From NCBI GenBank assembly GCA_963782555.1, contig CAWAKB010000002.1, positions 28,308 through 92,307 of the forward strand: a DNA stretch of 64,000 bases, given 5' to 3'. Both the position numbers and the translations under genes were made by a program. Under the pieces are notes generated by a model. That model was not told the origin of the DNA and searched no databases. It saw only the letters and a program-made list of their open reading frames with translations. Origin of the DNA: an uncultured Alphaproteobacteria bacterium (GTDB lineage: Bacteria; Pseudomonadota; Alphaproteobacteria; Rhizobiales; Hyphomicrobiaceae). This document shows positions 22,974 to 64,000 of the stretch, in pieces (positions within the stretch are counted from its first letter, which is position 1; each line of letters opens with the position of its first letter).

Positions 22974-23023
22974 AAAAAACCCGGCCGGATTGGGCCTTCA
23001 AGGCCGCCATCCGCTAACCGGGT
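22974..23023 (-). terminator. Intrinsic terminator-like hairpin in the metX leader
   Basis: Minus strand ACCCGG...CGGAT...ATCCG...CCGGGT followed by a U-run. Confidence 0.6.
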
Positions 23024-23028
23024 GCGTG

Positions 23029-23088
23029 CGGCCTTTTTTAGCGACTTGTTTAACGTGGTTGCAAGCCGGCCGGCCAAATCACCACGAC
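23029..23088 (-). ncRNA. SAM-II (SAM_alpha) riboswitch
   Basis: Minus strand CGTGGTGATTTGGCCGGCCGGCTTGCAACCACGTTAAACAAGTCGCTAAAAAAGGCCG upstream of metX. Confidence 0.9.
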
Positions 23089-23156
23089 GTGTGCAAGGAA
23101 ATAAGGGGTGGGGGCGGGAGCGTCAAGTGCCGGGTGCTCGGCGGGTGAGCCGGCCT

Positions 23157-43480: not shown

Positions 43481-43557
<77 letters not shown>

Positions 43558-52942: not shown

Positions 52943-53817
52943 TCAGAGGGAGAGTCCTGGGTTAGTGTTTTGCCCATTGCCGGTCGTCGCGGCAAGGGCC
53001 AGGTGGTGGCTGCAGAACTCCTCCGGTGTCCGGTTGGCGAGCGCCGAATTGGGCCGTACACGATTGTAATCGTCGCGCCACGCGGCGAGCACCGCGCGGG
53101 CCTCGGCGAGCGACGAGAAGACCGACTCGTTCAGGCACTCATCCCGGAGCCGGCCGTTGAAACTCTCGACAAACGCGTTCTGTTGCGGCTTGCCCGGCTG
53201 GATGTAGTGCCAGTCGACGCCCGTTCCCTTGCTCCAGGCCAGGATTGCCATGCTGGTGAGTTCGGTGCCGTTGTCGGAAACGCACGTCATCGGCTTGCCT
53301 CGGACCGCAATGATGGCATGGAGCTCTCGCGCAACGCGCGAGCGCCCGAGAGCGAGGTATCTGCGACGAGCGCCAGGCATTCGCGCGTGCAGTCGTCGAC
53401 AACCGCAAGAGCGCGGAACCGGCGGCTGTCCGTGAATGTGTCTGAGACGAAATCCAACGACCAGCGCTCGTTCGGCCGCGACGGAAGAGCCAAGGGGGCA
53501 CGCAGCCCGAGAGCCCGCTTGCGGCCACCACGCTTCCTCACCTGCAAACCTTCCTCGCGGTAGAGCCGCCGGAACCGCTTCTGGTTCATTGCCAAGCCTT
53601 CTCTCTCCAGCAGGAAATGCAATCGCCGGTAGCCAAACCGGCGACGCACCTGCGCCAGCTCCCGAATGCGAAGCCGAACGGCAAAATCGTCCGGGCGCAG
53701 GCTCCGGTAGCGCACCGTCGACCGATCAAGACCTAAGGCTTGGCACGCCCGCCGCTCGCTCACCTCGTGTGTCGTGCACACGTGAACCACGACCTGCCGT
53801 TTAGCGGCGGGCGTCAC
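52943..53817 (-). CDS. IS3 transposase OrfB (DDE); extra frameshift near 53340
   Basis: [52 protein letters not shown]. Confidence 0.9.
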
Positions 53818-54080
53818 CACTTTCGGCTGTTGATGTCCTTCAGGATCGCGTTGTCGAGCATCGTCTCGGCGAGCAGCTTCTTAAGCTTCGCGTTCTCGTC
53901 CTCGAGCGACTTCAGCCGCTTTGCGTCCGACACGTCCAGCCCGCCGAACTTCGACTTCCACTTGTAGAACGTCGCACCGCTGACCCCGTGCTTGCGGCAA
54001 ACATCCGCTGTCGGACGCCCTGCCTCCTGTTCCCGCAAGATCGCTATGATCTGCTCTTCCGAAAATCTGCTCTTACGCAT
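53814..54080 (-). CDS. IS3 transposase OrfA
   Basis: MRKSRFSEEQII...CRKHGVSGATFYKWKSKFGG...LEDENAKLKKLLA; ends CGA AAG TGG TGA. Confidence 0.93.
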   Translation of the reverse strand: MRKSRFSEEQIIAILREQEAGRPTADVCRKHGVSGATFYKWKSKFGGLDVSDAKRLKSLEDENAKLKKLLAETMLDNAILKDINSRKW

Positions 54081-54583: not shown

Positions 54584-54943
54584 TCATTTTTCGCGAATTG
54601 CCGGCTCTCTATTTTCGACGATCCATCGCATCACGTCGGCGGGCTTGCCTGCCGTCTGCTTGAGCCACTTGGTCATGCGCACGGTTTCACCGGGCTCGTT
54701 GCGCCAGAATTCCGTAACGAGATAAAGCCGCCACTTGAGGCGCGAGGCCTCCTCAAGGCGCAAGTGCAGAACCTCGACGTCAAAGCCGTACGTCTCCCCA
54801 TTGTAGCTGTGGCGGTCGAGGATGCATTCGACGCCACGCGCCTCCCATTTGTGCTTGCCGAGGCCGACGCTCGAGTTCTTCACGATGCGTTCGATATCGG
54901 TGATGACCCTCGCTCGTGACAATCTCCGCATGGGCTGAACCAC
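54584..54943 (-). CDS. Hypothetical protein at the end of the Ehr operon
   Basis: 119-aa ORF starting 11 bp after the hyfB-like stop. Confidence 0.65.
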   Translation of the reverse strand: MVQPMRRLSRARVITDIERIVKNSSVGLGKHKWEARGVECILDRHSYNGETYGFDVEVLHLRLEEASRLKWRLYLVTEFWRNEPGETVRMTKWLKQTAGKPADVMRWIVENREPAIREK

Positions 54944-54953
54944 GACGCTTTCC

Positions 54954-56948
54954 TTAGAGAAGCGCGATGAAAAGGATAACGAGAAGAAGCGCGCCGATGA
55001 GCGACAAGTAGACGTTCAGATGACCGGACTGGATTATCTGCAACCTGGCAGCCAGAGCGACGACCAGGCGCTCCAGCGGCGCGAAAAGATAGGGGCCGAA
55101 GATCGGTGCAACGTCGTGACGGAACAGCAACCGCCGGACGAAATATGGATGGCCGTTGCCCTCCTCGGCATGCTCCCGCTCGGTCTCCACGGTCGGCCTG
55201 TAAACGAAGCTGTAGAAGGTGCGCAGCGCGTTGGAGAATGTGAGAGCGGTCGTCGCCGAGCGCTGAGCATCCTGGCTGTGTCCGCCATACCAGACAGGGA
55301 CGACGCGCACCTGCCGCCGCCGCGTCAGGAGCAAAAGACTAAGCGGCAGCAGAGCGAGCAGCGGCATCGCGATGACGAGCTTCGTCGGCGAGATGAAGGC
55401 GAACTTGGCCGACAGCGGCACCAGCAGCCATCCGTCGTGCATTCTCGCTGCCGCATCGACCCCGAACCGGCTGGTGACGACCGGCTCGAGATTAGTCAGC
55501 CAAACCGGCATGCCGGCCGCCAGCACCAGGACCAGCAGCCCCAACACGCCAACGGCGACCGAGGTTGCCAAGGGCACCGGAGCGCTGCCTCGGGCTTCCC
55601 GCCCGAGCAGCCCGATGCCGAAGACCTTGATGTAGGTGGCGAAGGCGACGGCGGCGGTGAGCGCCAGGCCGGCGCCGGCCAAAGTAGCCACGAGGCGGCT
55701 GCTAAGGTGCGTGAGGTGAAATCCCTGGAAGAAGGTCTGGAACAGATACCATTCGCTGACGAAGCCCGCCTGCGGCGGCATCGCCGCCAGGCTCATCGCG
55801 GCAAAGAGCGCGCCTAGCCCGAAGATCCAGGGGCTCCGCGCCAAGATCCCGCGCTGCACCAGCGTATAGTCCGCGGTCGCGCGGTAGACGCCGTCGGCGG
55901 CAAGAAACATCGCACCTTTGGCCAGCGCGTGTGCGGCCAAATGCAAAAGGGCAACTGTCCATGCGAGCCCAGCCAGATCCATCAGCCCGTCCTGCCGGAA
56001 CATCAAGGCGGCGCCCAAGAGGCACACCGCGATCGAGCCGTTCTCGGCCGACGACAGACTTAGCAGCTCACGCCAGCGCTCCTGCTGAAACGCATAGAGC
56101 GCCGTGAGGATGGCGCTCAGCACCGCGACGGCAATCATGAAGATGCCCGGAATGGAGACCGGCAGGTCCTGGCTTGCGGGCATCCATTCGATGAAGGCCC
56201 GGCTCAGCCCGAAGAACGCTGCGTTGAGGATGATGCCGGAGAGCAGGGCGCCTGTGGCTCCGCTACCGGCGCCGTAGGCTCCGGGAAACCACTCGTAGAA
56301 GGGCAGCAACCCGAGTTTTGCGCCAAAGCCGATCAGCAGCAGAAACGCCACGAGGAGCTGCTCCGATTCCGGCATCGCGCGCGCAGCCGTGCCAAAGTCG
56401 GAGAAGGACAAGCTGCCGGCTTGCCCGGCCAACAGGAGGAAGGCGAGGAGCAAAGCCACGGAGCCGGCCTCCAGCAGCCCGAGCATGAACAAGGCGGGAC
56501 GACCCGACTCCGCGGCCAGATCGTCGCCCAAAATCATCACGGCCCCGCCGAGGCTCATGATCTCCCAGGCAATCAGGAAGCTCACGGCATCCTGCATGCC
56601 GAAGACTCCCAAAGCTCCGACAAGGCTCGCAGCCGCGCCGAAGATCCAAGTTCGCTGCGGGCGCATGGGCGTGCCAAGCCAGCACGCAAGGATGGCAGCC
56701 GGCAGTCCAAAACCCATGAGCCAGAGCGCGTCCGGCGCGAGCATAAAGATCGATCCAAAGGTGGCCATGCCGAGCGGCGTGTGGATCGGCGGCACACCCG
56801 ACGGGAGCATTTCGACGACAAGCATAAGGAGCACCACGCTGCCAATGCCGAGGATGGCGCGAGCGACGCGTGTGGCTCTTCCGGCAAGCGCGAGCACGGC
56901 CGCGCCCAACCACATCGCCAGGCAAAGTGCGAGGAGCTCATTCGACAA
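54954..56948 (-). CDS. hyfB: HyfB-like (NuoL/MrpA-type) proton-translocating subunit
   Basis: FLIAWEIMSL, GFGAKLGLLPF, SSAENG, HALAKGAMFL, PPQAGFVSEW. Confidence 0.85.
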   Translation of the reverse strand: MSNELLALCLAMWLGAAVLALAGRATRVARAILGIGSVVLLMLVVEMLPSGVPPIHTPLGMATFGSIFMLAPDALWLMGFGLPAAILACWLGTPMRPQRTWIFGAAASLVGALGVFGMQDAVSFLIAWEIMSLGGAVMILGDDLAAESGRPALFMLGLLEAGSVALLLAFLLLAGQAGSLSFSDFGTAARAMPESEQLLVAFLLLIGFGAKLGLLPFYEWFPGAYGAGSGATGALLSGIILNAAFFGLSRAFIEWMPASQDLPVSIPGIFMIAVAVLSAILTALYAFQQERWRELLSLSSAENGSIAVCLLGAALMFRQDGLMDLAGLAWTVALLHLAAHALAKGAMFLAADGVYRATADYTLVQRGILARSPWIFGLGALFAAMSLAAMPPQAGFVSEWYLFQTFFQGFHLTHLSSRLVATLAGAGLALTAAVAFATYIKVFGIGLLGREARGSAPVPLATSVAVGVLGLLVLVLAAGMPVWLTNLEPVVTSRFGVDAAARMHDGWLLVPLSAKFAFISPTKLVIAMPLLALLPLSLLLLTRRRQVRVVPVWYGGHSQDAQRSATTALTFSNALRTFYSFVYRPTVETEREHAEEGNGHPYFVRRLLFRHDVAPIFGPYLFAPLERLVVALAARLQIIQSGHLNVYLSLIGALLLVILFIALL

Positions 56949-57747
56949 GGCGTCCTCCTCTCACCCGTTGCGGAGCCCGGTCGAGGAACATGAGCAGCGC
57001 CTCGATCAACGCCGCCGGATTGGGCGGGCAGCCCGGCAGATAGAGGTCGACCGGCAAAACGCCTTCAAGGCCGGTGCCGCAGGAATAGCCGCCGCCCGCG
57101 ATGCCGCCGGAGACGGCGCAAGTCCCGACGGCCATCACCCAACGCGGCTCCGGCATCGCCTCGTAGGTCTGTAGTAGGGGCCCGTGCATGGCGTAGGTCA
57201 CGGGGCCGGTGACGAGGAGAAGGTCGGCGAAACGCGGCGACGGCGTGAAGAAGATGCCCAGCCGGTGCAGGTTGTAGAACGGGTTGTTGAGGGCCTGCAG
57301 CTCCGATTCGCAGCCGTTACAGGAGCCAGAGTTGACATGGCGAATGTGCAGGCTTCGGCGAAAACCGGCGCGCGATTCCGGCGGCTTGCGCTTCTCCGCG
57401 GCTCGATCGCTGCCCGCCGGCAGCACGAGATCGGAGCGGTCGCTGACGCCGAACGCCCAATCGTAAGATGTGGAGGCCGCCTCCGTCGGACAGGCCTCGA
57501 CGCAAAGCTGACAGACGACACAGCGGCCGTAGTCGACCTCCATGCGCGCGTCGCCGGCACGCTCGGGATGACACGTGATCGCCTCGGTTGGGCACACGGC
57601 CGCGCACGCGCTGCAGCCCTCCTCGCATTGCTCTAGGTCAAACCGCGGCATTCCGAGCACGCCGTCTTGCCCAGAGTCGCGGCCAGGACTTGGCCAAGGC
57701 GTCGTTGCCTTTCCTTTCTGCAGGCCGAACAGTGTCCACAGCGGCAT
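56938..57747 (-). CDS. Fused 2x[4Fe-4S] ferredoxin (NuoI/HyfH-like) and NuoB/HyfI-like small subunit
   Basis: CSACAAVCP, CVVCQLCVEACP, SGSCNGCESE, SPRFAD, GTCA, PGCPP. Confidence 0.9.
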   Translation of the reverse strand: MPLWTLFGLQKGKATTPWPSPGRDSGQDGVLGMPRFDLEQCEEGCSACAAVCPTEAITCHPERAGDARMEVDYGRCVVCQLCVEACPTEAASTSYDWAFGVSDRSDLVLPAGSDRAAEKRKPPESRAGFRRSLHIRHVNSGSCNGCESELQALNNPFYNLHRLGIFFTPSPRFADLLLVTGPVTYAMHGPLLQTYEAMPEPRWVMAVGTCAVSGGIAGGGYSCGTGLEGVLPVDLYLPGCPPNPAALIEALLMFLDRAPQRVRGGRLVE

Positions 57748-57755
57748 GGCGCCTC

Positions 57756-59267
57756 CTAGCGATCGCAACCGGCCACGGTGAGGCCGAAGCTCGCCTCGTT
57801 GATGGCGTAGTCCATCATGTTGCTGTCGTGCACGGTGAACGGGAACACCCGCCAGTTCGAGAACGAAGGTGATTTGATCTTGACGCGCGCGAGTGCGCCG
57901 TCGTTGCCGACGTGGACCGCATAAAACAGGGAGCCGCGCGGCGTCTCCGCCCAGCCAAGCCCTTCGCTATCGGGGGACGGCTCACATTCGGTGCGCGCGG
58001 GACCCTCAGCGAGCAAGGGCAGAACGTTCTGAATGAGTGCGACGCTCGCATCGATCTCGGCGATGCGCACTTGTGCGCGGGCATGGGCGTCTCCGCTCGT
58101 CCTTGCGGGGACGGTGAGCGGAAGACCGCCATAGGCCGCGTAAGGGTGATCGCGACGCAGATCGCGGTCGAGCCCGGAGGCGCGCTCGATCGGTCCCGTT
58201 GCCCCCTGATCGAAGGCAACCTCGCGACTGAGAACGCCGGTTGTCATCAGACGGTCGAGGTAGCTGTTTGTCGACTCCAGCATGGCTGCGTAGGTGGCAA
58301 CGTCCTTGTGCAGGCTCTCTAGTGCTTTGCCGAGCCACGGTTCCGGAACCAAGTTGCGACGAAGCCCGCCCGGTATGAGCAGTCCGCGCAGGAAGCGGCT
58401 GCCGGTCAAGCGTCCGTTGATCTGCTTGGCGCGCTCCTCGAGCAGCTTTCCCTCGGCATTGCCGGCCTTGAGGGTCGTCGTATCCGCCAAATGCCCGAGG
58501 TAGTGCAGGTGGTTGTAAAGACGCTCGAGCTCTGCCAGCAGCGAGCGCAGTAGAAGCGCACGTCGAGGGACGGCGCAGCCGGCCGCGTGCTCGACGGCCT
58601 GGCAGAAGGCAAGGCCCTGCGCGAAGCTGCCGACGCCCGAGACGCGCTCCGCGAGCACCACCGCGCCGGCGGGCGTCCGTCCCTCGAACCGCTTCTCCAT
58701 GCCGCGATGCTTGAAGAAGAGCTGCGGATGCAGGTGCAAGATGTGCTCGCCGACGTAGAAGAAGATGAGCTCGGCCGACTCGACGACGTCGGCGCGCACC
58801 GGCCCGAACGGCAAACGCTGCACGTCGGAGCTCTGCATTTCAGGCATCCGGCTTGCAGCCGGCTTGAACGGCATCGGCGTTCCGACGGGATAGACCGGAT
58901 CGAGCGGCGGCGTCACCGGCCTCGCGCCCTGATGCAGCACGAGGCGATGCGGCTCCGGATGGCCTGAAAATTCCAATCCGTAGAGGTCGGTGATCTCGCG
59001 CTCGTACCAGCCCAGAAGCGGGCTGATGCCGGCGACGCTCGGAACTGGGCCCCGCGCATCGCAGCGCCAGACAAGAAAGTCTTGGCCGGGCGCACGGCTC
59101 GCGACATAACGAAGCTCGAGCCGGTCGCGGCTCGGATACCAAGCGTAGGCCATCTGCATCCGGCCGCCGCTCTCGATCAGCTTGGCGACGGCGCGCGGCA
59201 GCTGCTCGGGCTCGATTGCAACGAGCTCGGCTCCAGCCATCCTCGCGGTTGTGGCACCGGTGGTCAT
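57756..59267 (-). CDS. HycE/NuoCD-like large subunit lacking NiFe CxxC ligands (Ehr type)
   Basis: WYEREI, FKHRGMEKRFE, ERVSGVG (no Cys), ELERLYNH, ETPRG, PSFSNW, ASFGLTVAGCDR. Confidence 0.9.
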   Translation of the reverse strand: MTTGATTARMAGAELVAIEPEQLPRAVAKLIESGGRMQMAYAWYPSRDRLELRYVASRAPGQDFLVWRCDARGPVPSVAGISPLLGWYEREITDLYGLEFSGHPEPHRLVLHQGARPVTPPLDPVYPVGTPMPFKPAASRMPEMQSSDVQRLPFGPVRADVVESAELIFFYVGEHILHLHPQLFFKHRGMEKRFEGRTPAGAVVLAERVSGVGSFAQGLAFCQAVEHAAGCAVPRRALLLRSLLAELERLYNHLHYLGHLADTTTLKAGNAEGKLLEERAKQINGRLTGSRFLRGLLIPGGLRRNLVPEPWLGKALESLHKDVATYAAMLESTNSYLDRLMTTGVLSREVAFDQGATGPIERASGLDRDLRRDHPYAAYGGLPLTVPARTSGDAHARAQVRIAEIDASVALIQNVLPLLAEGPARTECEPSPDSEGLGWAETPRGSLFYAVHVGNDGALARVKIKSPSFSNWRVFPFTVHDSNMMDYAINEASFGLTVAGCDR

Positions 59268-60730
59268 GGCACCCCCGGTGACAGCATTTGGGCGATGGAG
59301 GTGACGTAGTCCCAGATTCCGGTCGGCCACCACAGGCCCAGGACCAGCAGGGGAGCCAAGGACAGCCACATCGGCAGCGTGCACCAAGCGCTCAGCCTGC
59401 CGCGCGAGGGTGCATCGGCCGCCGGCGCCCCGTAGTACATGATCCGGAATTGATTCATGAAGCCGATGAAGATGACGATCAGGAGCACGGCCATTGCATA
59501 GACGGCCCACGAGAAGGACGGCCTGAGACCGGCGCGCATGACCGTGAACTCGCTGAGGAACAGGCCGAAGGGCGGCGCTCCGGTGATGGCTACGGCGCCC
59601 GCAAGCCATAGCGCCCCTTCTACGGGAAAGCGGCGCCCGACGCCGCGGATGAGCGCAATCTCCTTCGTGCCGTAGGCTCGCATCATGTTGCCGGCGCCGA
59701 AGAACATCAGCGACTTGTTCAAGGAGTGATTGAGCATGTGGTAGAGCGCGCCGGCGACGCCCAGGGCGCCGCCGAAGCCGAAGCCGAGCGCGACCACGCC
59801 CATATGCTCGACGCTGGAGTACGCCATCAGGCGCTTGATGCCCCGCTGCCGCACGATGAAAAGTGCTCCGATCAACAACGACAGGACGCCGAACGCGACC
59901 AGCGCCAGTTCCGGCAGCGGACCAAGATTGGCCTGCCGGACGATGCCGAGGAAACGCACGATCCCAACCATCGCAGTGTTCAAGAGCGCGCCCGAGAGCA
60001 TCGCTGAAACGGGCGCCGGGCTCTCGCTGTGCGCATCCGGCAGCCAGCTGTGCATGGGCGCGAGACCGACTTTGGTGCCATAGCCGACGAGAACCAGCAG
60101 GAAGGCCAGCACGAGCAAGACGGCGTTCATGTTGGGAGCCGCTTCACTGAGCTTCGCCCAGGTCATCTGGTAAGTCGGACCGAGCACGAAGGTTCCGGCC
60201 CAGTAGAAGAGCACCGTGCCAAGCAGTGCCAGACTGATCCCGGCCGAGACGACCATGATGTATTTCCATGCCGCCTCCATGCTCTCGGCGACACGCTCGA
60301 AAGCGACGAGAAAAGTGCTGACCAGCGTGGTCAGCTCGATGGCGATCCAATAGAGCCCGATATTGTTCATCAGCGGCCCGATGAACGTCGTCAGGGCGAA
60401 AGCCGCAAACAGCGCGTAGAATTTGTAGAGTTGGCGCTCCTCATTCAGCAGCCGCATGTAGCCGACGGCATAGATCGAGGCGAGGAAGTAGACGATGGAC
60501 GTACAAAGGATGACCCAGGCGGAGAGCCGATCGATGAGGACGTAGTCGTTCCAAAATAAAAGTCCCTGCCCGTCGACCAGGAACGGCAGCGGCAGCGCAC
60601 ACGCGAAGGACACGGCGCTGGCGACAAGATTGGAGACCTCGGACCAGCGGGGTTGACGCACCACGACGCACCCGATCACCGCCAGCAGCGGCGCCATAAC
60701 GAGGCCAAGGATGAGCGCCCCGATCGTCAT
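59264..60730 (-). CDS. hyfF: Hydrogenase-4 component F-like antiporter subunit
   Basis: WIAIELTTL, EAAWKY, GYGTKVGLAPMHSWLPDAHSESP, AYSSVEHMG; ATGA overlaps at both ends. Confidence 0.9.
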   Translation of the reverse strand: MTIGALILGLVMAPLLAVIGCVVVRQPRWSEVSNLVASAVSFACALPLPFLVDGQGLLFWNDYVLIDRLSAWVILCTSIVYFLASIYAVGYMRLLNEERQLYKFYALFAAFALTTFIGPLMNNIGLYWIAIELTTLVSTFLVAFERVAESMEAAWKYIMVVSAGISLALLGTVLFYWAGTFVLGPTYQMTWAKLSEAAPNMNAVLLVLAFLLVLVGYGTKVGLAPMHSWLPDAHSESPAPVSAMLSGALLNTAMVGIVRFLGIVRQANLGPLPELALVAFGVLSLLIGALFIVRQRGIKRLMAYSSVEHMGVVALGFGFGGALGVAGALYHMLNHSLNKSLMFFGAGNMMRAYGTKEIALIRGVGRRFPVEGALWLAGAVAITGAPPFGLFLSEFTVMRAGLRPSFSWAVYAMAVLLIVIFIGFMNQFRIMYYGAPAADAPSRGRLSAWCTLPMWLSLAPLLVLGLWWPTGIWDYVTSIAQMLSPGVP

Positions 60731-61408
60731 CCCACCAGCCTCTTGAGATCGAGGCTGCTCGTCGTGCCGATATGAGTTCTGGAGATACCCGACCAGCACA
60801 CCGAAGCACGCCACGATGATGAGCAGATCGAAGAGGATGACGAGCTCGAACAGCAGCGGCATCCCTGGCACAAGGATTTGCGAGCCGAGAAAGATGCCGT
60901 TCTCGAGCACGAGCAGTCCGAGGATCTGGCTGATGGCCTCATAGCGAACCGTGAGCATGAGGAAGCCAATGAGCTTCATCGACAGCATGACCGTCAGCGC
61001 CAGGACGACCACGGTCAGCTCCAGGTTTAGGTCGGCGGCGATCCTGAAGGATACCGAGAGGGCGAACATCACGAACAATGCGCCGAGCACCAGACTCGTG
61101 CTCGGCTGCAGGACCACGTGGATTTCGCGGTTCACATCCAGGCGGCGGATGATCCGCCAGACCAGGTAGGGAAGGAGCAGCCCGCGAAAGAGCGCCGTCA
61201 GAAGCGCGACGAGGTAGAGCTCGGGATAGTCTCCGTAAAAGGCTATGGCGGCGGAGAGGACGGCGATGGCCCACGATTCGGCTGCGAACGCGTAGAGATA
61301 GTTCTTGAGCCAACGCGAGCCGAGCATGACGAAAGACAGCAGCAGGCTCACGATCGCAAGCAGGCTGAACAGCGATGAAGCGAGCGGGTCGAGGTGCTGG
61401 ATCAACAT
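60727..61408 (-). CDS. hyfE: Hydrogenase-4 component E-like subunit; +1 indel near 60780
   Basis: GLLLPYL, SQILGLLVLENG, GMPLLFELVILFD; natural end HIGTTSSLDLKRLVG in the shifted frame. Confidence 0.85.
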
Positions 61409-61414
61409 GGGGCT

Positions 61415-62359
61415 CTAGCTCAGCTGAGTGCCGACGATCGCCAGGACCGCCAGCAGGAATGATGCGGCGAGCGGCTCCTGATAACGGTAGAAGCGCAGGC
61501 GCGACTGCGCGGTCTCGACCAACACGACAAGGCAGGCGACGGCCATGAACTTGACGATGAGCCCAGCCGCCGCTCCGGCAGCACCGAGTGCCGTGCCTTC
61601 GATCGACAGGCCCCAGGGCAGGATCAGCACGTTGCAGAAGATCGTGTAGAGAATGAATTGCTTCATGGCCGAGGCCCATTTGAGCAGCGCCAGGAGCGGC
61701 CCGGAGTATTCCAGGATGCGCCCCTCCTCGATCATGTAGACCTCGATATGCGTGCTCGAATGGATCGGCATGCGGTCCGTCTCGACCAGCAAAAGGATGA
61801 AGAAGGCCGCCACCAGCAACAGATGCGCGGGGCTCCAGTAGGCCGCCCAACTCGACACCAGCAAATGGTTGACCACGAAGGGCAGCATCGCTTTGGCGAG
61901 TAGCGTGATGCCGACAAAGACGAGGATCAGCGTCGGCTCGGCGAGGATCGCCACCATCACCGCCCGGCTCGAGCCGATGCCGCCGTATGCACTCGCGGTG
62001 TCGAGCCCGGCAAGGATGATCATGAACGATCCGAGTGTGAGAATGAGCCCGCCGCCGAGAATGTCGCCCATATCCGAGAGCGGCAGCGGGAAGTTCGTGA
62101 GCACCGGGATCAGAATCGGCACCGTGAGCATGCACGTGAAGGCGACGACGGGCGCCGTCCAGAACAGCCACGAGGCCGTCTCGGGCACGACGATCTGCTT
62201 GTGAAAGAGCTTCCACAGGTCGCGGTAGGGCTGGAAGATTCCGGGACCTTGCGCGCGTTGAACGCGCTCTTCGAATTGAATGATGATGCCCTGAATGAGC
62301 GGTGACAGAAGCAGCACCGTCAGCACTTGGGCGATCTGTAGAAGAAGATCGCGGATCAC
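61415..62359 (-). CDS. hyfC: HyfC/NuoH-like membrane subunit
   Basis: QRAQGPGIFQPYRDLWKLFHK, GGIGSSR, ETDRMP, SGPLLAL. Confidence 0.9.
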   Translation of the reverse strand: MIRDLLLQIAQVLTVLLLSPLIQGIIIQFEERVQRAQGPGIFQPYRDLWKLFHKQIVVPETASWLFWTAPVVAFTCMLTVPILIPVLTNFPLPLSDMGDILGGGLILTLGSFMIILAGLDTASAYGGIGSSRAVMVAILAEPTLILVFVGITLLAKAMLPFVVNHLLVSSWAAYWSPAHLLLVAAFFILLLVETDRMPIHSSTHIEVYMIEEGRILEYSGPLLALLKWASAMKQFILYTIFCNVLILPWGLSIEGTALGAAGAAAGLIVKFMAVACLVVLVETAQSRLRFYRYQEPLAASFLLAVLAIVGTQLS

Positions 62360-62457
62360 GGTGACGATGCTCCGTCACCAAAAATGCTCGCCGCCTCGTT
62401 GCCGGGCTTGGCAAATCGTTGCGCGGCTAGCGCGCACTTATCGGCGGGGTCCGCCAT
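62356..62457 (-). CDS. 33-aa leader ORF overlapping the hyfC start (or frameshifted HyfC N-terminus)
   Basis: AAGGAG SD 8 nt upstream; MADPADKCALAAQRFAKPGNEAASIFGDGASSP*; TGA overlaps GTG. Confidence 0.45.
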   Translation of the reverse strand: MADPADKCALAAQRFAKPGNEAASIFGDGASSP

Positions 62458-62490
62458 AGCGACCGCTCCTTCTCCCTCACGGGAGGACAA

Positions 62491-62540
62491 GGAGGAGTCA
62501 TCAGCCCCAGGGCGGTTATACGGCCAACTCCATGGCCTTA
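62491..62540 (-). ncRNA. Fluoride (crcB-motif) riboswitch upstream of the Ehr operon
   Basis: Minus strand GGCCATGGAGTTGGCC-GTATAACCGCCCTGGGGCTGATGACTCCT; compensatory P1 pairing, GGAGT/ACTCC pseudoknot. Confidence 0.85.
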
Positions 62541-62552
62541 CGCCAAGCTTTC

Positions 62553-62581
62553 TAGCTAGCTGGGAGTTTAAGGCATGTCAA
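62553..62581 (-). promoter_or_regulatory. Probable sigma70-type promoter for the riboswitch-Ehr transcript
   Basis: TTGACA at 62581-62576, 17-bp spacer, weak -10 TAGCTA. Confidence 0.45.
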
Positions 62582-62592
62582 CAAACCGCACG

Positions 62593-62937
62593 TTATCCCG
62601 TGCTGTTCGGTGGGCCGTAGCAGAGGACCTGCACCTTCTCCAAAGTAACCAGTCCGCCGGTCATCATTGCATCGAGGATAGGAAGGAACGCATCAATCTT
62701 CGCTTCGCTGTCGACGATCTCTATGACCACCGGCAGATTTTCGGCGAGCCGCAGAATCTTGGTCGTATGCAGAAGGCACGAGCGGCCGAACCCCATTGGA
62801 CCGCGGAGGACTGTGGCGCCGGCGAGATGCGCCTCTCGTGCACGAAAAATGATCGCCTCATAGAGGGGCCGGCCATTCACCCTATCGTTTTCGCCGACGA
62901 AAATTCGCAGCAGCTTTGCGTCATTGGGGACGGTCAT
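62593..62937 (-). CDS. DUF190 family (PII-like) protein
   Basis: LLRIFVGEND, LAGATVLRGPMGFG, LAENLPVVIEIVD, GGLVTLEKV. Confidence 0.93.
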   Translation of the reverse strand: MTVPNDAKLLRIFVGENDRVNGRPLYEAIIFRAREAHLAGATVLRGPMGFGRSCLLHTTKILRLAENLPVVIEIVDSEAKIDAFLPILDAMMTGGLVTLEKVQVLCYGPPNSTG

Positions 62938-63061
62938 GGCGTGACTTCTCCCAAGGTAGGCTCAACTGGCGTCACGCATTTGGCCCGCTCTCAAGATGGC
63001 GCGAACACAAACCCATTATACGGCGGGCTTGTGAGCAATCTCCCACCGCTAGCGTCCTGCG

Positions 63062-63109
63062 GTAGGAGTCATCAGCCAAGTTGCGGCGGTTTCGGGGGAC
63101 TCCATCCCC
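63062..63109 (-). ncRNA. Fluoride (crcB-motif) riboswitch upstream of DUF190
   Basis: Minus strand GGGGATGGAGTCCCCCGAAACCGCCGCAACTTGGCTGATGACTCCTAC, canonical pattern. Confidence 0.92.
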
Positions 63110-63227
63110 ATATGGGCCAGAACGCTAATTTATGGCTGGCACAGGGTCAACGGTGGCGGCAACGCCGAATGATCTGCTCGCAGACATGCAAGTAGCGTGT
63201 CCGGCCGGCGCGCCCAACATGATCAGC

Positions 63228-64000
63228 TCAAGTAGTGGTGTGTGATCCCCGCTTGGTCATGTCATGGGCCACGCCGGCCGCCTGCGCCGTCGGAAGGCGC
63301 CGTGCCGCCCACCGTTCGAGTGCAAAATAGAGGGTTGGCATGATGAACAGGGTGAGCAGCGTAGCCGGAAGAAGACCGCCGGCCACAACCGTCGCGAGGC
63401 TGCGCTGCACGTCGCTGCCGACGCCCGTCGCCAGCGCGGCTGGCAACATGCCGACCGTTGCCACGGAAGCCGTCATAAGCACCGGTCGCAAGCGTTCGCC
63501 AGCTCCTACCAAGACGGCCTCGAACAGCGGGGTGCCTTGCTCGCGGACCCGATTGAGGTTTGCCACCATGATGACCCCGTTCATGACGGCGACACCGAAC
63601 AGCGCGATGAAGCCGACCCCCGACGCGACATTTAGGGTCGTCCCGGTGAGATGGAGGGCGATCAATCCTCCGAGCGTCGCCAAGGGCACCAAGCTGAGGA
63701 TCAGCAAGACCTGGCGCAAGACCCCGAACTCGGCATAGAGCAGTATTATCATGAGCCCCAAGACCAAGCCGAGAATCAGCTTGAAACGCGCCTCTGCCCG
63801 CCGCTGGCTCTCGAACTGTCCGCCCCATTTAAGGTGATATTTTTTCCGATCGAATGAAACCTTTGCTGCGATGGCTTTCGTGACCTGTGACACGAGCGCA
63901 GCGGGATCGCGATCATGATAGTCGAGCTTCACCAGTAGGTAGCGGTGATTCATTTCGCGATTGATCATGCTTTCGCCGGTCTGCACCTTGACGTCCGCGA
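63228..64000 (-). CDS. CusA/CzcA-family RND efflux permease, C-terminal part (truncated by the window)
   Basis: WGGQFESQRRA, VASGVGFIALFGVAVMNG, RLRPVLMTA, GVGSDVQRSLATVVAGGL. Confidence 0.92.
   Translation of the reverse strand, partial: ADVKVQTGESMINREMNHRYLLVKLDYHDRDPAALVSQVTKAIAAKVSFDRKKYHLKWGGQFESQRRAEARFKLILGLVLGLMIILLYAEFGVLRQVLLILSLVPLATLGGLIALHLTGTTLNVASGVGFIALFGVAVMNGVIMVANLNRVREQGTPLFEAVLVGAGERLRPVLMTASVATVGMLPAALATGVGSDVQRSLATVVAGGLLPATLLTLFIMPTLYFALERWAARRLPTAQAAGVAHDMTKRGSHTTT

Follow-up and report, generated by a model that had tools for sequence, protein, structure and literature searches.

The DNA analysed here, a 64,000-nucleotide (nt) stretch of contig CAWAKB010000002.1 (assembly GCA_963782555.1; hereafter the window), comes from an uncultured member of the Alphaproteobacteria (Rhizobiales, Hyphomicrobiaceae) and carries on its minus strand a hyf-like operon that is headed by a fluoride riboswitch and encodes a Ni-free relative of the group 4 hydrogenases and complex I. 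The whole window was scanned with Rfam, as had been proposed in a first description made from the letters alone (the sequence-only reading), and four matches exceeded threshold, two of which were fluoride aptamers on the minus strand. The riboswitch that this reading had placed at the head of the operon was recovered there, at 48.4 bits (gathering score of RF01734, 34 bits), in the 5′ untranslated region (UTR) and 125 nt before hyfC. The operon consists of the following features (lengths in amino acids, aa).

62485-62546 (-), fluoride riboswitch aptamer (crcB motif) heading the operon: RF01734, 48.4 bits, E 2.4e-10.
61415-62359 (-), hyfC, 314 aa: NuoH/HycD-like membrane subunit; Pfam NADHdh, E 4e-33; HycD in the PDB (7z0s_D), E 1.7e-33.
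60731-61408 (-), hyfE part of a fused frame: HyfE-like, by alignment with three relatives (L005-L007).
59264-60730 (-), hyfF, 488 aa: antiporter-like, NuoN/M class; Proton_antipo_M, E 2.6e-49.
57756-59267 (-), large subunit, 503 aa: NuoC+NuoD/HycE-like; HycE (7z0s_E), E 1e-53.
56938-57747 (-), ferredoxin + small-subunit fusion, 269 aa: HycF/NuoI-like (two 4Fe-4S clusters) and HycG/NuoB-like (one 4Fe-4S cluster).
54954-56948 (-), hyfB, 664 aa: antiporter-like, NuoL/HycC class; Proton_antipo_M, E 1.7e-30.
54584-54943 (-), seventh gene, 119 aa: starts 10 nt after hyfB; position the same in L005 and L006.

The fusion protein matched Pfam Fer4 and Oxidored_q6 and, in the PDB, HycG (7z0s_G, E 6e-33) and HycF (7z0s_F, E 1e-10). 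HyfF and HyfB both contained Proton_antipo_M, in agreement with the two antiporter-like subunits described earlier; HyfF matched the NCBIfam model for hydrogenase 4 subunit F at E 2e-112, but under that model's cut-off, and HyfB gave a full-length match to hydrogenase 4 subunit B (NCBIfam, E 6e-86) and PDB matches to MBS (6u8y_X) and HycC (7z0s_C). Gene junctions ranged from -11 nt (overlap) to +10 nt (gap) and included an ATGA overlap between hyfF and the large-subunit gene, the start of which was set at the ATG at 59267, the first ATG of the long open reading frame (ORF) being too early. The genes and the tight coupling of the sequence-only reading were thereby recovered, but hyfE and hyfF were found in one frame in this genome and the seventh gene had been overlooked; the range given for the system (54954-62540) was too short, as it missed this gene and, upstream, a second aptamer with a DUF190 gene.

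Relatives were defined as the 80 best large-subunit matches from species-representative genomes, and were mostly soil and peat Alphaproteobacteria (Stellaceae, Methylocella, Methylocapsa, Methylovirgula, Rhizomicrobium and Xanthobacteraceae), mostly metagenome-derived. Tested on 7 loci, Rfam placed an aptamer ~3.2 kb ahead of the large subunit in all of them, and a custom covariance model, built from 16 Rfam-confirmed aptamers and used to scan the 80 loci, detected 139 aptamers. With the 8/80 loci that were cut off upstream left out of the count, an aptamer was present on the operon strand just before hyfC in all 72 loci with sufficient upstream DNA (65%–91% identity). A wider sample of 400 genomes, evenly drawn from the phylum, added one ortholog only (G383, 64% identity), which also bore the aptamer, and the next matches in that sample were at ≤37% identity. 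The survey of riboswitch linkage across Ehr operons that had been suggested earlier thus gave an aptamer in 73/73 orthologous operons and in 0/7 outgroup operons (≤37% identity), the latter being a true Ni-Fe Hyf operon (L088), two Ni-free members of a sister clade with the same gene order, and four canonical operons of order B-C-E-F-L-S (L089-L092). The aptamer-linked sequences were monophyletic on the tree (Shimodaira-Hasegawa-like approximate likelihood-ratio test, SH-aLRT, 99), with a long stem and a single change of state. The locus as described is real and far beyond chance.

Two loci of this survey are recorded in their own right. In a metagenome-assembled genome from the Terriglobia (Acidobacteriota; L024, 9001-10479), the operon is present at 76% identity together with aptamer, crcB and DUF190, which suggests that the whole unit was transferred between phyla. 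One of the canonical outgroups (L092, C5:484-498 kb) is a second Ni-free Ehr-type operon of the same genome as the window; it has the order hyfB-C-F-large-small and the pocket motifs RTSGDSTVAY and SFNCSYSGHD, and no hyfE-like match, ferredoxin domain or fluoride aptamer was seen in it.

The large subunit aligned best with E. coli HycE, and its predicted fold was also nearest to HycE (TM-score 0.82), the AlphaFold monomer being of low confidence at residues 139-188 and 469-503, which surround the former active site. The HycE motif DRVCGICGFAH is exchanged for ERVSGVGSFAQ, and the C-terminus reads LTVAGCDR versus DPCYSCTDR in the true Hyf outgroup L088, which keeps CGIC and DPCYSC and is without an aptamer. 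At the Ni-Fe ligand positions, which correspond to HycE C241, C244, C531 and C534, the 81 family members have S210 (81/81), G213 (78/81), T497 (77/81) and G500 (81/81), the C-terminal pair having been aligned by hand from the DR terminus; the two CxxC motifs (L1 and L2) of group 4 [NiFe] hydrogenases are missing from the large subunit. HypD (PF01924) was absent from the 98.4% complete genome, in a search for which control genomes gave hits. FdhF was seen neither in the operon nor in the conserved flank clusters; no genome-wide search for FdhF was made. The earlier statements that NiFe ligands and maturation genes were lacking therefore hold, the first with all four cysteines replaced across 81 sequences and the second, as regards HypD, genome-wide. 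Source databases annotate 'formate hydrogenlyase subunit 5', the nearest solved structure is E. coli formate hydrogenlyase (FHL), and 'formate hydrogen lyase' is listed in PMC2864571 and PMC11139923, all of which would fit a genuine formate hydrogenlyase or [NiFe] hydrogenase. With the four cysteines absent in 77-81 of 81 sequences, no HypD in the genome and the ligands kept in the aptamer-free Hyf outgroup, this possibility is close to nil: a true hydrogenase was rejected as refuted by sequence, and, judged by its ligand positions, the clade cannot be a hydrogenase. In place of the ligands, the family has an invariant pocket set of its own (S210, C428, C501, H187, H253, H452 and H480), with R158, D160 and E163 nearly invariant.

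The electron path and the ion channels are both conserved. The 12 cysteines of three 4Fe-4S clusters in the ferredoxin and small-subunit fusion (C41/45/48/52, C76/79/82/86 and C143/146/210/240) are kept in 71-74 of 74 sequences. The antiporter-channel motifs of HyfB and HyfF, comprising the Glu of transmembrane helix 5 (TM5) in WEI(M), the TM7 Lys in GxKxGxxPxHxWxP, HxxxK and the TM12 Glu, are conserved family-wide. Identity within the family is 65%–97%, with HyfC the most conserved subunit (80%–97%), which points to purifying selection. On these residues, the complex is likely a working redox pump.

The membrane subunits taken by themselves would also suit a redox-independent, Mrp-like cation/proton antiporter serving pH homeostasis, with an Fe-S peripheral arm that is structural or regulatory only. 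Among the gene classes associated with fluoride riboswitches, Na+/H+ antiporters rank second in frequency (PMC11139923), the Mrp chains 7qru_D and 6z16_A are among the PDB matches to HyfB, and no donor or acceptor module lies nearby. The 12 Fe-S cysteines together with S210, C428, C501, H452 and H480 are, however, invariant or nearly so in 74-81 sequences, which is hard to explain without redox chemistry, and the operon shows no evident counterparts of MrpB, C, E, F and G. We consider such an antiporter unlikely, if the most credible of the alternatives.

The surroundings of the operon in the related loci were rich in fluoride-linked genes. crcB lay within 185 nt after hyfB on the same strand in 28/67 loci, often with DUF190 next. 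The flanks of the related loci held 66 further aptamers, which drive DUF190 (14), MutS-like (13) and Metallophos (5) genes as well as glutamine synthetase, dihydroxy-acid dehydratase, enolase, CrcB, Usp and other genes. Among the 80 related loci, the commonest flank families were DUF190 (42 loci), CrcB (32) and the 119-aa family (20), followed by MutS-like (19), histidine-phosphatase (12) and enolase (7). The 119-aa product of the seventh gene gave no Pfam or NCBIfam match; its homologues occur in the fluoride islands of those 20 loci, 4 to 6 of them directly behind a fluoride aptamer of their own, and by this placement the protein is an unnamed member of the fluoride regulon. Dense islands, with up to six aptamer matches within 19 kb, were noted at L011, L016, L039, L044 and L084, where the aptamers drive MutS-like, Metallophos, enolase, glutamine synthetase, dihydroxy-acid dehydratase and major facilitator superfamily (MFS) genes. 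That the complex belongs to the fluoride response, under a genuine fluoride aptamer, is supported at the level of sequence and linkage, because the aptamer is present in 73/73 operons versus 0/7 outgroups, crcB is co-operonic in 28/67 loci and the flanks are fluoride islands.

The island genes also bear on what the complex is for. Under a fluoride block of enolase and other Mg-dependent enzymes, the complex could be a redox relief valve that re-oxidises a reduced carrier as it builds up or replaces a fluoride-sensitive step, with pumping secondary. Genes for enolase, a phosphoglycerate-mutase-like protein and dihydroxy-acid dehydratase do share the islands, and the electron wire is intact. Tight linkage, however, is to crcB and DUF190 and not to metabolic genes, and both ion channels are fully conserved, so that a relief valve appears unlikely as well and is ranked behind the antiporter. 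A machine specific for fluoride, in which the pocket or the membrane arm would bind F-, HF or a metal-fluoride and export or sense it directly, would account for the exclusive association of the aptamer with this clade and for a pocket with its own invariant residues; but modules of the complex-I type are not known to move anions, the channels have the ordinary Lys/Glu residues of a proton relay, and crcB is present so often that export would seem to be taken care of already. It is accordingly held to be very improbable.

The reading that we favour, with a probability of roughly 55%, is that the operon encodes a fluoride-induced, membrane-bound, redox-driven ion pump of complex-I/Hyf-like, Ehr type, from which the Ni-Fe site has been lost. 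The pump function is inferred from the conserved Fe-S ligands, the antiporter-channel residues and the gene linkage. Electrons would pass from a soluble donor, for example ferredoxin, along the three-cluster wire to an acceptor at the rebuilt pocket, and this flow would drive the export of protons or another cation through the two antiporter-like channels. Weak-acid accumulation of fluoride lowers the proton-motive force (PMF) and the cytoplasmic pH, and Fluc relies on the electrical gradient (PMC11139923). At low pH, HF diffuses in and F- leaves via Fluc (CrcB), a cycle that acts like a protonophore, leaving one H+ inside and spending membrane potential at each turn; an additional pump induced by fluoride would expel this proton and restore the potential on which F- efflux depends, which would explain the frequent presence of crcB in the operon. 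On this evidence, the enzyme family probably helps cells to survive fluoride.

A more ambitious version joins the complex and Fluc into one dedicated, energised fluoride-extrusion machine, with pumping gated by or coupled to fluoride. The pocket (S210, C428, C501, H452 and H480, plus the R158/D160/E163 loop) would then bind fluoride, HF or a metal-fluoride. We regard this as speculative, less credible than the relief valve and more so than direct handling of fluoride by the complex; if true, it would be the first complex-I-type module for anion defence and the first function assigned to an Ehr complex.

Several observations weigh against a fluoride-induced redox pump. None of the conserved flank genes supplies an electron donor in the form of a ferredoxin, a flavodoxin or an NAD(P)H-binding subunit, and the model offers no reason why the housekeeping complex I would not suffice. 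The quinone residues of complex I are gone from the large subunit, with G211 at the position of Nqo4 Tyr87 and R158 in place of the GPxH histidine; the family has a RADVVES loop, versus HPSTHG in the Nqo4 alignment. Thermus Nqo4 Y87 and H38 are taken here to be the quinone-site Tyr and His of NuoD. In this genome, moreover, a frameshift runs hyfE into hyfF and the large subunit has Q in place of the near-invariant H217, so the window copy may be impaired, or the assembly may contain an indel error.

The state of the window copy was examined by alignment. hyfE and hyfF form one frame of 714 aa (59264-61408, -), and separate genes with an ATGA overlap are present in 68/70 relatives. One extra base was located near 60777-60778, where the window reads CAGAACTCA versus CAG-ACCCA in the three relatives L005-L007; this 1-nt insertion swaps out the last ~15 codons of hyfE and deletes its stop. 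Downstream of the insertion, the pre-insertion frame still codes for the conserved HyfE tail, as read by eye from the alignment, which suggests that the hyfE-hyfF fusion stems either from an indel in the assembly or from a frameshift of very recent date. At codon 217 of the large subunit (58617-58619, -), Q is found in the window only and H in 80/81 family members, in a column that also aligns with a histidine in HycE and Nqo4. The window proteins were checked at columns conserved in ≥95% of sequences and were not outliers, save for H217Q and the shifted HyfE tail, in which all five HyfE departures from conserved columns sit. Pseudogene decay of the window copy was rejected as a general explanation, since the proteins are not outliers beyond these two places.

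The region between the DUF190 gene and hyfC contains three features that bear on control of the operon.

62553-62581 (-), putative promoter: TTGACA (62576-62581), 17-nt spacer, TAGCTA (62553-62558).
62455-62499 (-), expression platform: GACUCCUCCUU (62489-62499) pairs with AAGGAGCGGUC (62461-62471).
62356-62457 (-), leader ORF, 33 codons: its TGA overlaps the hyfC GTG (GTGA).

A promoter belonging to the operon itself had been proposed in the sequence-only reading. It is backed by a TTGAC(A) box that about 71/73 family members have 36-60 nt ahead of stem P1 of the aptamer, but a simple sigma-70 consensus scan called no promoter; the putative promoter was missed because its -10 element is weak. 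Pairing of GACUCCUCCUU with AAGGAGCGGUC, seen in both the minimum free energy and the centroid folds (-48.5 kcal/mol, z -2.0), is predicted to hide the Shine-Dalgarno sequence of the leader ORF and to engage the pseudoknot strand ACUCC, and a matching CUCCUCC...GGAGGAG design is present in relatives. The platform strand ACUCCUCC thus has two competing partners, as it is predicted to pair with the leader Shine-Dalgarno and is also the strand that the fluoride pseudoknot requires. In 47/73 loci, a leader ORF that begins with ATG and runs for 15-34 codons has its stop overlapping the hyfC start, against 8.2 (maximum 16) in 200 shuffles; at the peptide level, the leaders are not conserved.

From this arrangement, we infer a translational ON-switch coupled via the leader ORF. 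When fluoride is lacking, the 3′ strand of the aptamer (ACUCCUCC) would pair with the Shine-Dalgarno of the leader ORF; when fluoride is present, that strand would be drawn into the aptamer pseudoknot and the leader ORF would be translated, and translation of hyfC would be coupled to that of the leader through the overlap of leader stop and hyfC start. An OFF-switch was considered and rejected, as the apo fold conceals the Shine-Dalgarno.

Directly upstream of the operon, 570 nt from its aptamer, lies a second fluoride-controlled unit.

63056-63118 (-), second fluoride aptamer: RF01734, 54.8 bits, E 2e-12.
62593-62937 (-), DUF190 gene under the second aptamer, 114 aa: PF02641, E 4.5e-39.

A weak terminator-like hairpin (62588-62603) lies between the DUF190 gene and the operon promoter, and the C-terminal part of a CusA/CzcA-type heavy-metal resistance-nodulation-division (RND) pump (63228-63998, -) ends just upstream of the DUF190 aptamer. 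No crcB was found within the window, and in this respect the sequence-only reading was right; elsewhere in the same genome, crcB is present with an aptamer of its own on contig 4 (C4:344142-344689), and in the relatives a crcB is usually found inside the operon or close by. Genome-wide, there are only three fluoride aptamers, at crcB, at DUF190 and at the hyf-like operon. Some 9 kb separate this crcB from a CLC-family gene (C4:353440-354498, L093), at which no fluoride aptamer was reported. An insertion sequence (IS) element, represented by two transposase-like ORFs that overlap each other (52943-53820, -), lies about 0.8 kb past the operon end, on the side where many relatives have crcB-DUF190, and a rearrangement may have removed crcB-DUF190 from this end of the operon. 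The remaining Rfam matches in the window were a SAM_alpha riboswitch (23016-23095, -; 73 bits), an alphaproteobacterial marker, and a tRNA gene (43481-43554, +).

Weinberg et al. described crcB-motif RNAs together with 'formate hydrogen lyase' genes in 2010 (PMC2864571), and the sequence-only reading was right to treat this pairing as known; a 2024 review repeats it and explains it by formate-oxidising fermentation (PMC11139923). The present finding is a reinterpretation of a published association and not its first sighting. The same pairing is reportedly also described by Baker et al. in 2012. No literature joining Ehr or Ni-free complexes to fluoride was found in full-text searches. Since 2010-2012, the fluoride regulon has contained an unexplained entry, 'formate hydrogen lyase', and Ehr complexes are widespread relatives of complex I without an assigned function. 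Both puzzles would find a testable solution in an inducible partner that couples energy to fluoride export, because the clade is not a hydrogenase, the aptamer is present in all 73 operons and the operon is often shared with a Fluc channel.

The window family shares with the published regulon the placing of a crcB-motif aptamer in the 5′ UTR ahead of hyf/hyc-like genes, and the accompanying crcB, MutS-like, enolase and other genes. It differs from the published 'formate hydrogen lyase' reading in being Ni-free, in the absence of HypD, in the aptamer borne by every ortholog examined and in a crcB that is often co-operonic. E. coli formate hydrogenlyase-1 (7Z0S) provides the best sequence and fold match for the counterparts of HycE, HycG, HycF, HycD and HycC, and hydrogenase-4 (Hyf) shares the two antiporter-like subunits; unlike both, the window complex lacks a Ni-Fe site, has no FdhF in its operon, fuses the ferredoxin to the small subunit and is under fluoride control. 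A peripheral Fe-S arm on a NuoH-like subunit with antiporter-like pumps is common to the window complex, Pyrococcus MBH/MBS (6CFW, 6U8Y) and complex I; the Ni-Fe site of MBH is missing from it, as are the quinone Tyr/His and the NADH module of complex I. The likeness to Mrp lies in the MrpA/MrpD-like HyfB and HyfF with their conserved Lys/Glu relay, but the window operon has HyfC, HyfE and an Fe-S peripheral arm rather than MrpB, C, E, F and G.

The closest comparison is with the Ehr complexes, group 4 hydrogenase relatives without Ni/Fe ligands and of unknown function (PMC6349859). In common with these, the window operon encodes subunits homologous to group 4 hydrogenases and complex I, includes antiporter-like subunits and has lost the Ni/Fe residues. 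The Ehr terms are said to go back to Coppi in 2005 and Marreiros in 2013. The gene order of the window, C-E-F-L-(ferredoxin+S)-B, differs from the canonical ehrA-B-C-D-L-S, which is without a ferredoxin domain (L089-L092), and the aptamer clade is set off by its long stem and about 35% identity. Judged by its subunits and missing ligands, the clade falls within the definition of Ehr and is a distinct variant of it in gene order and in its fused ferredoxin.

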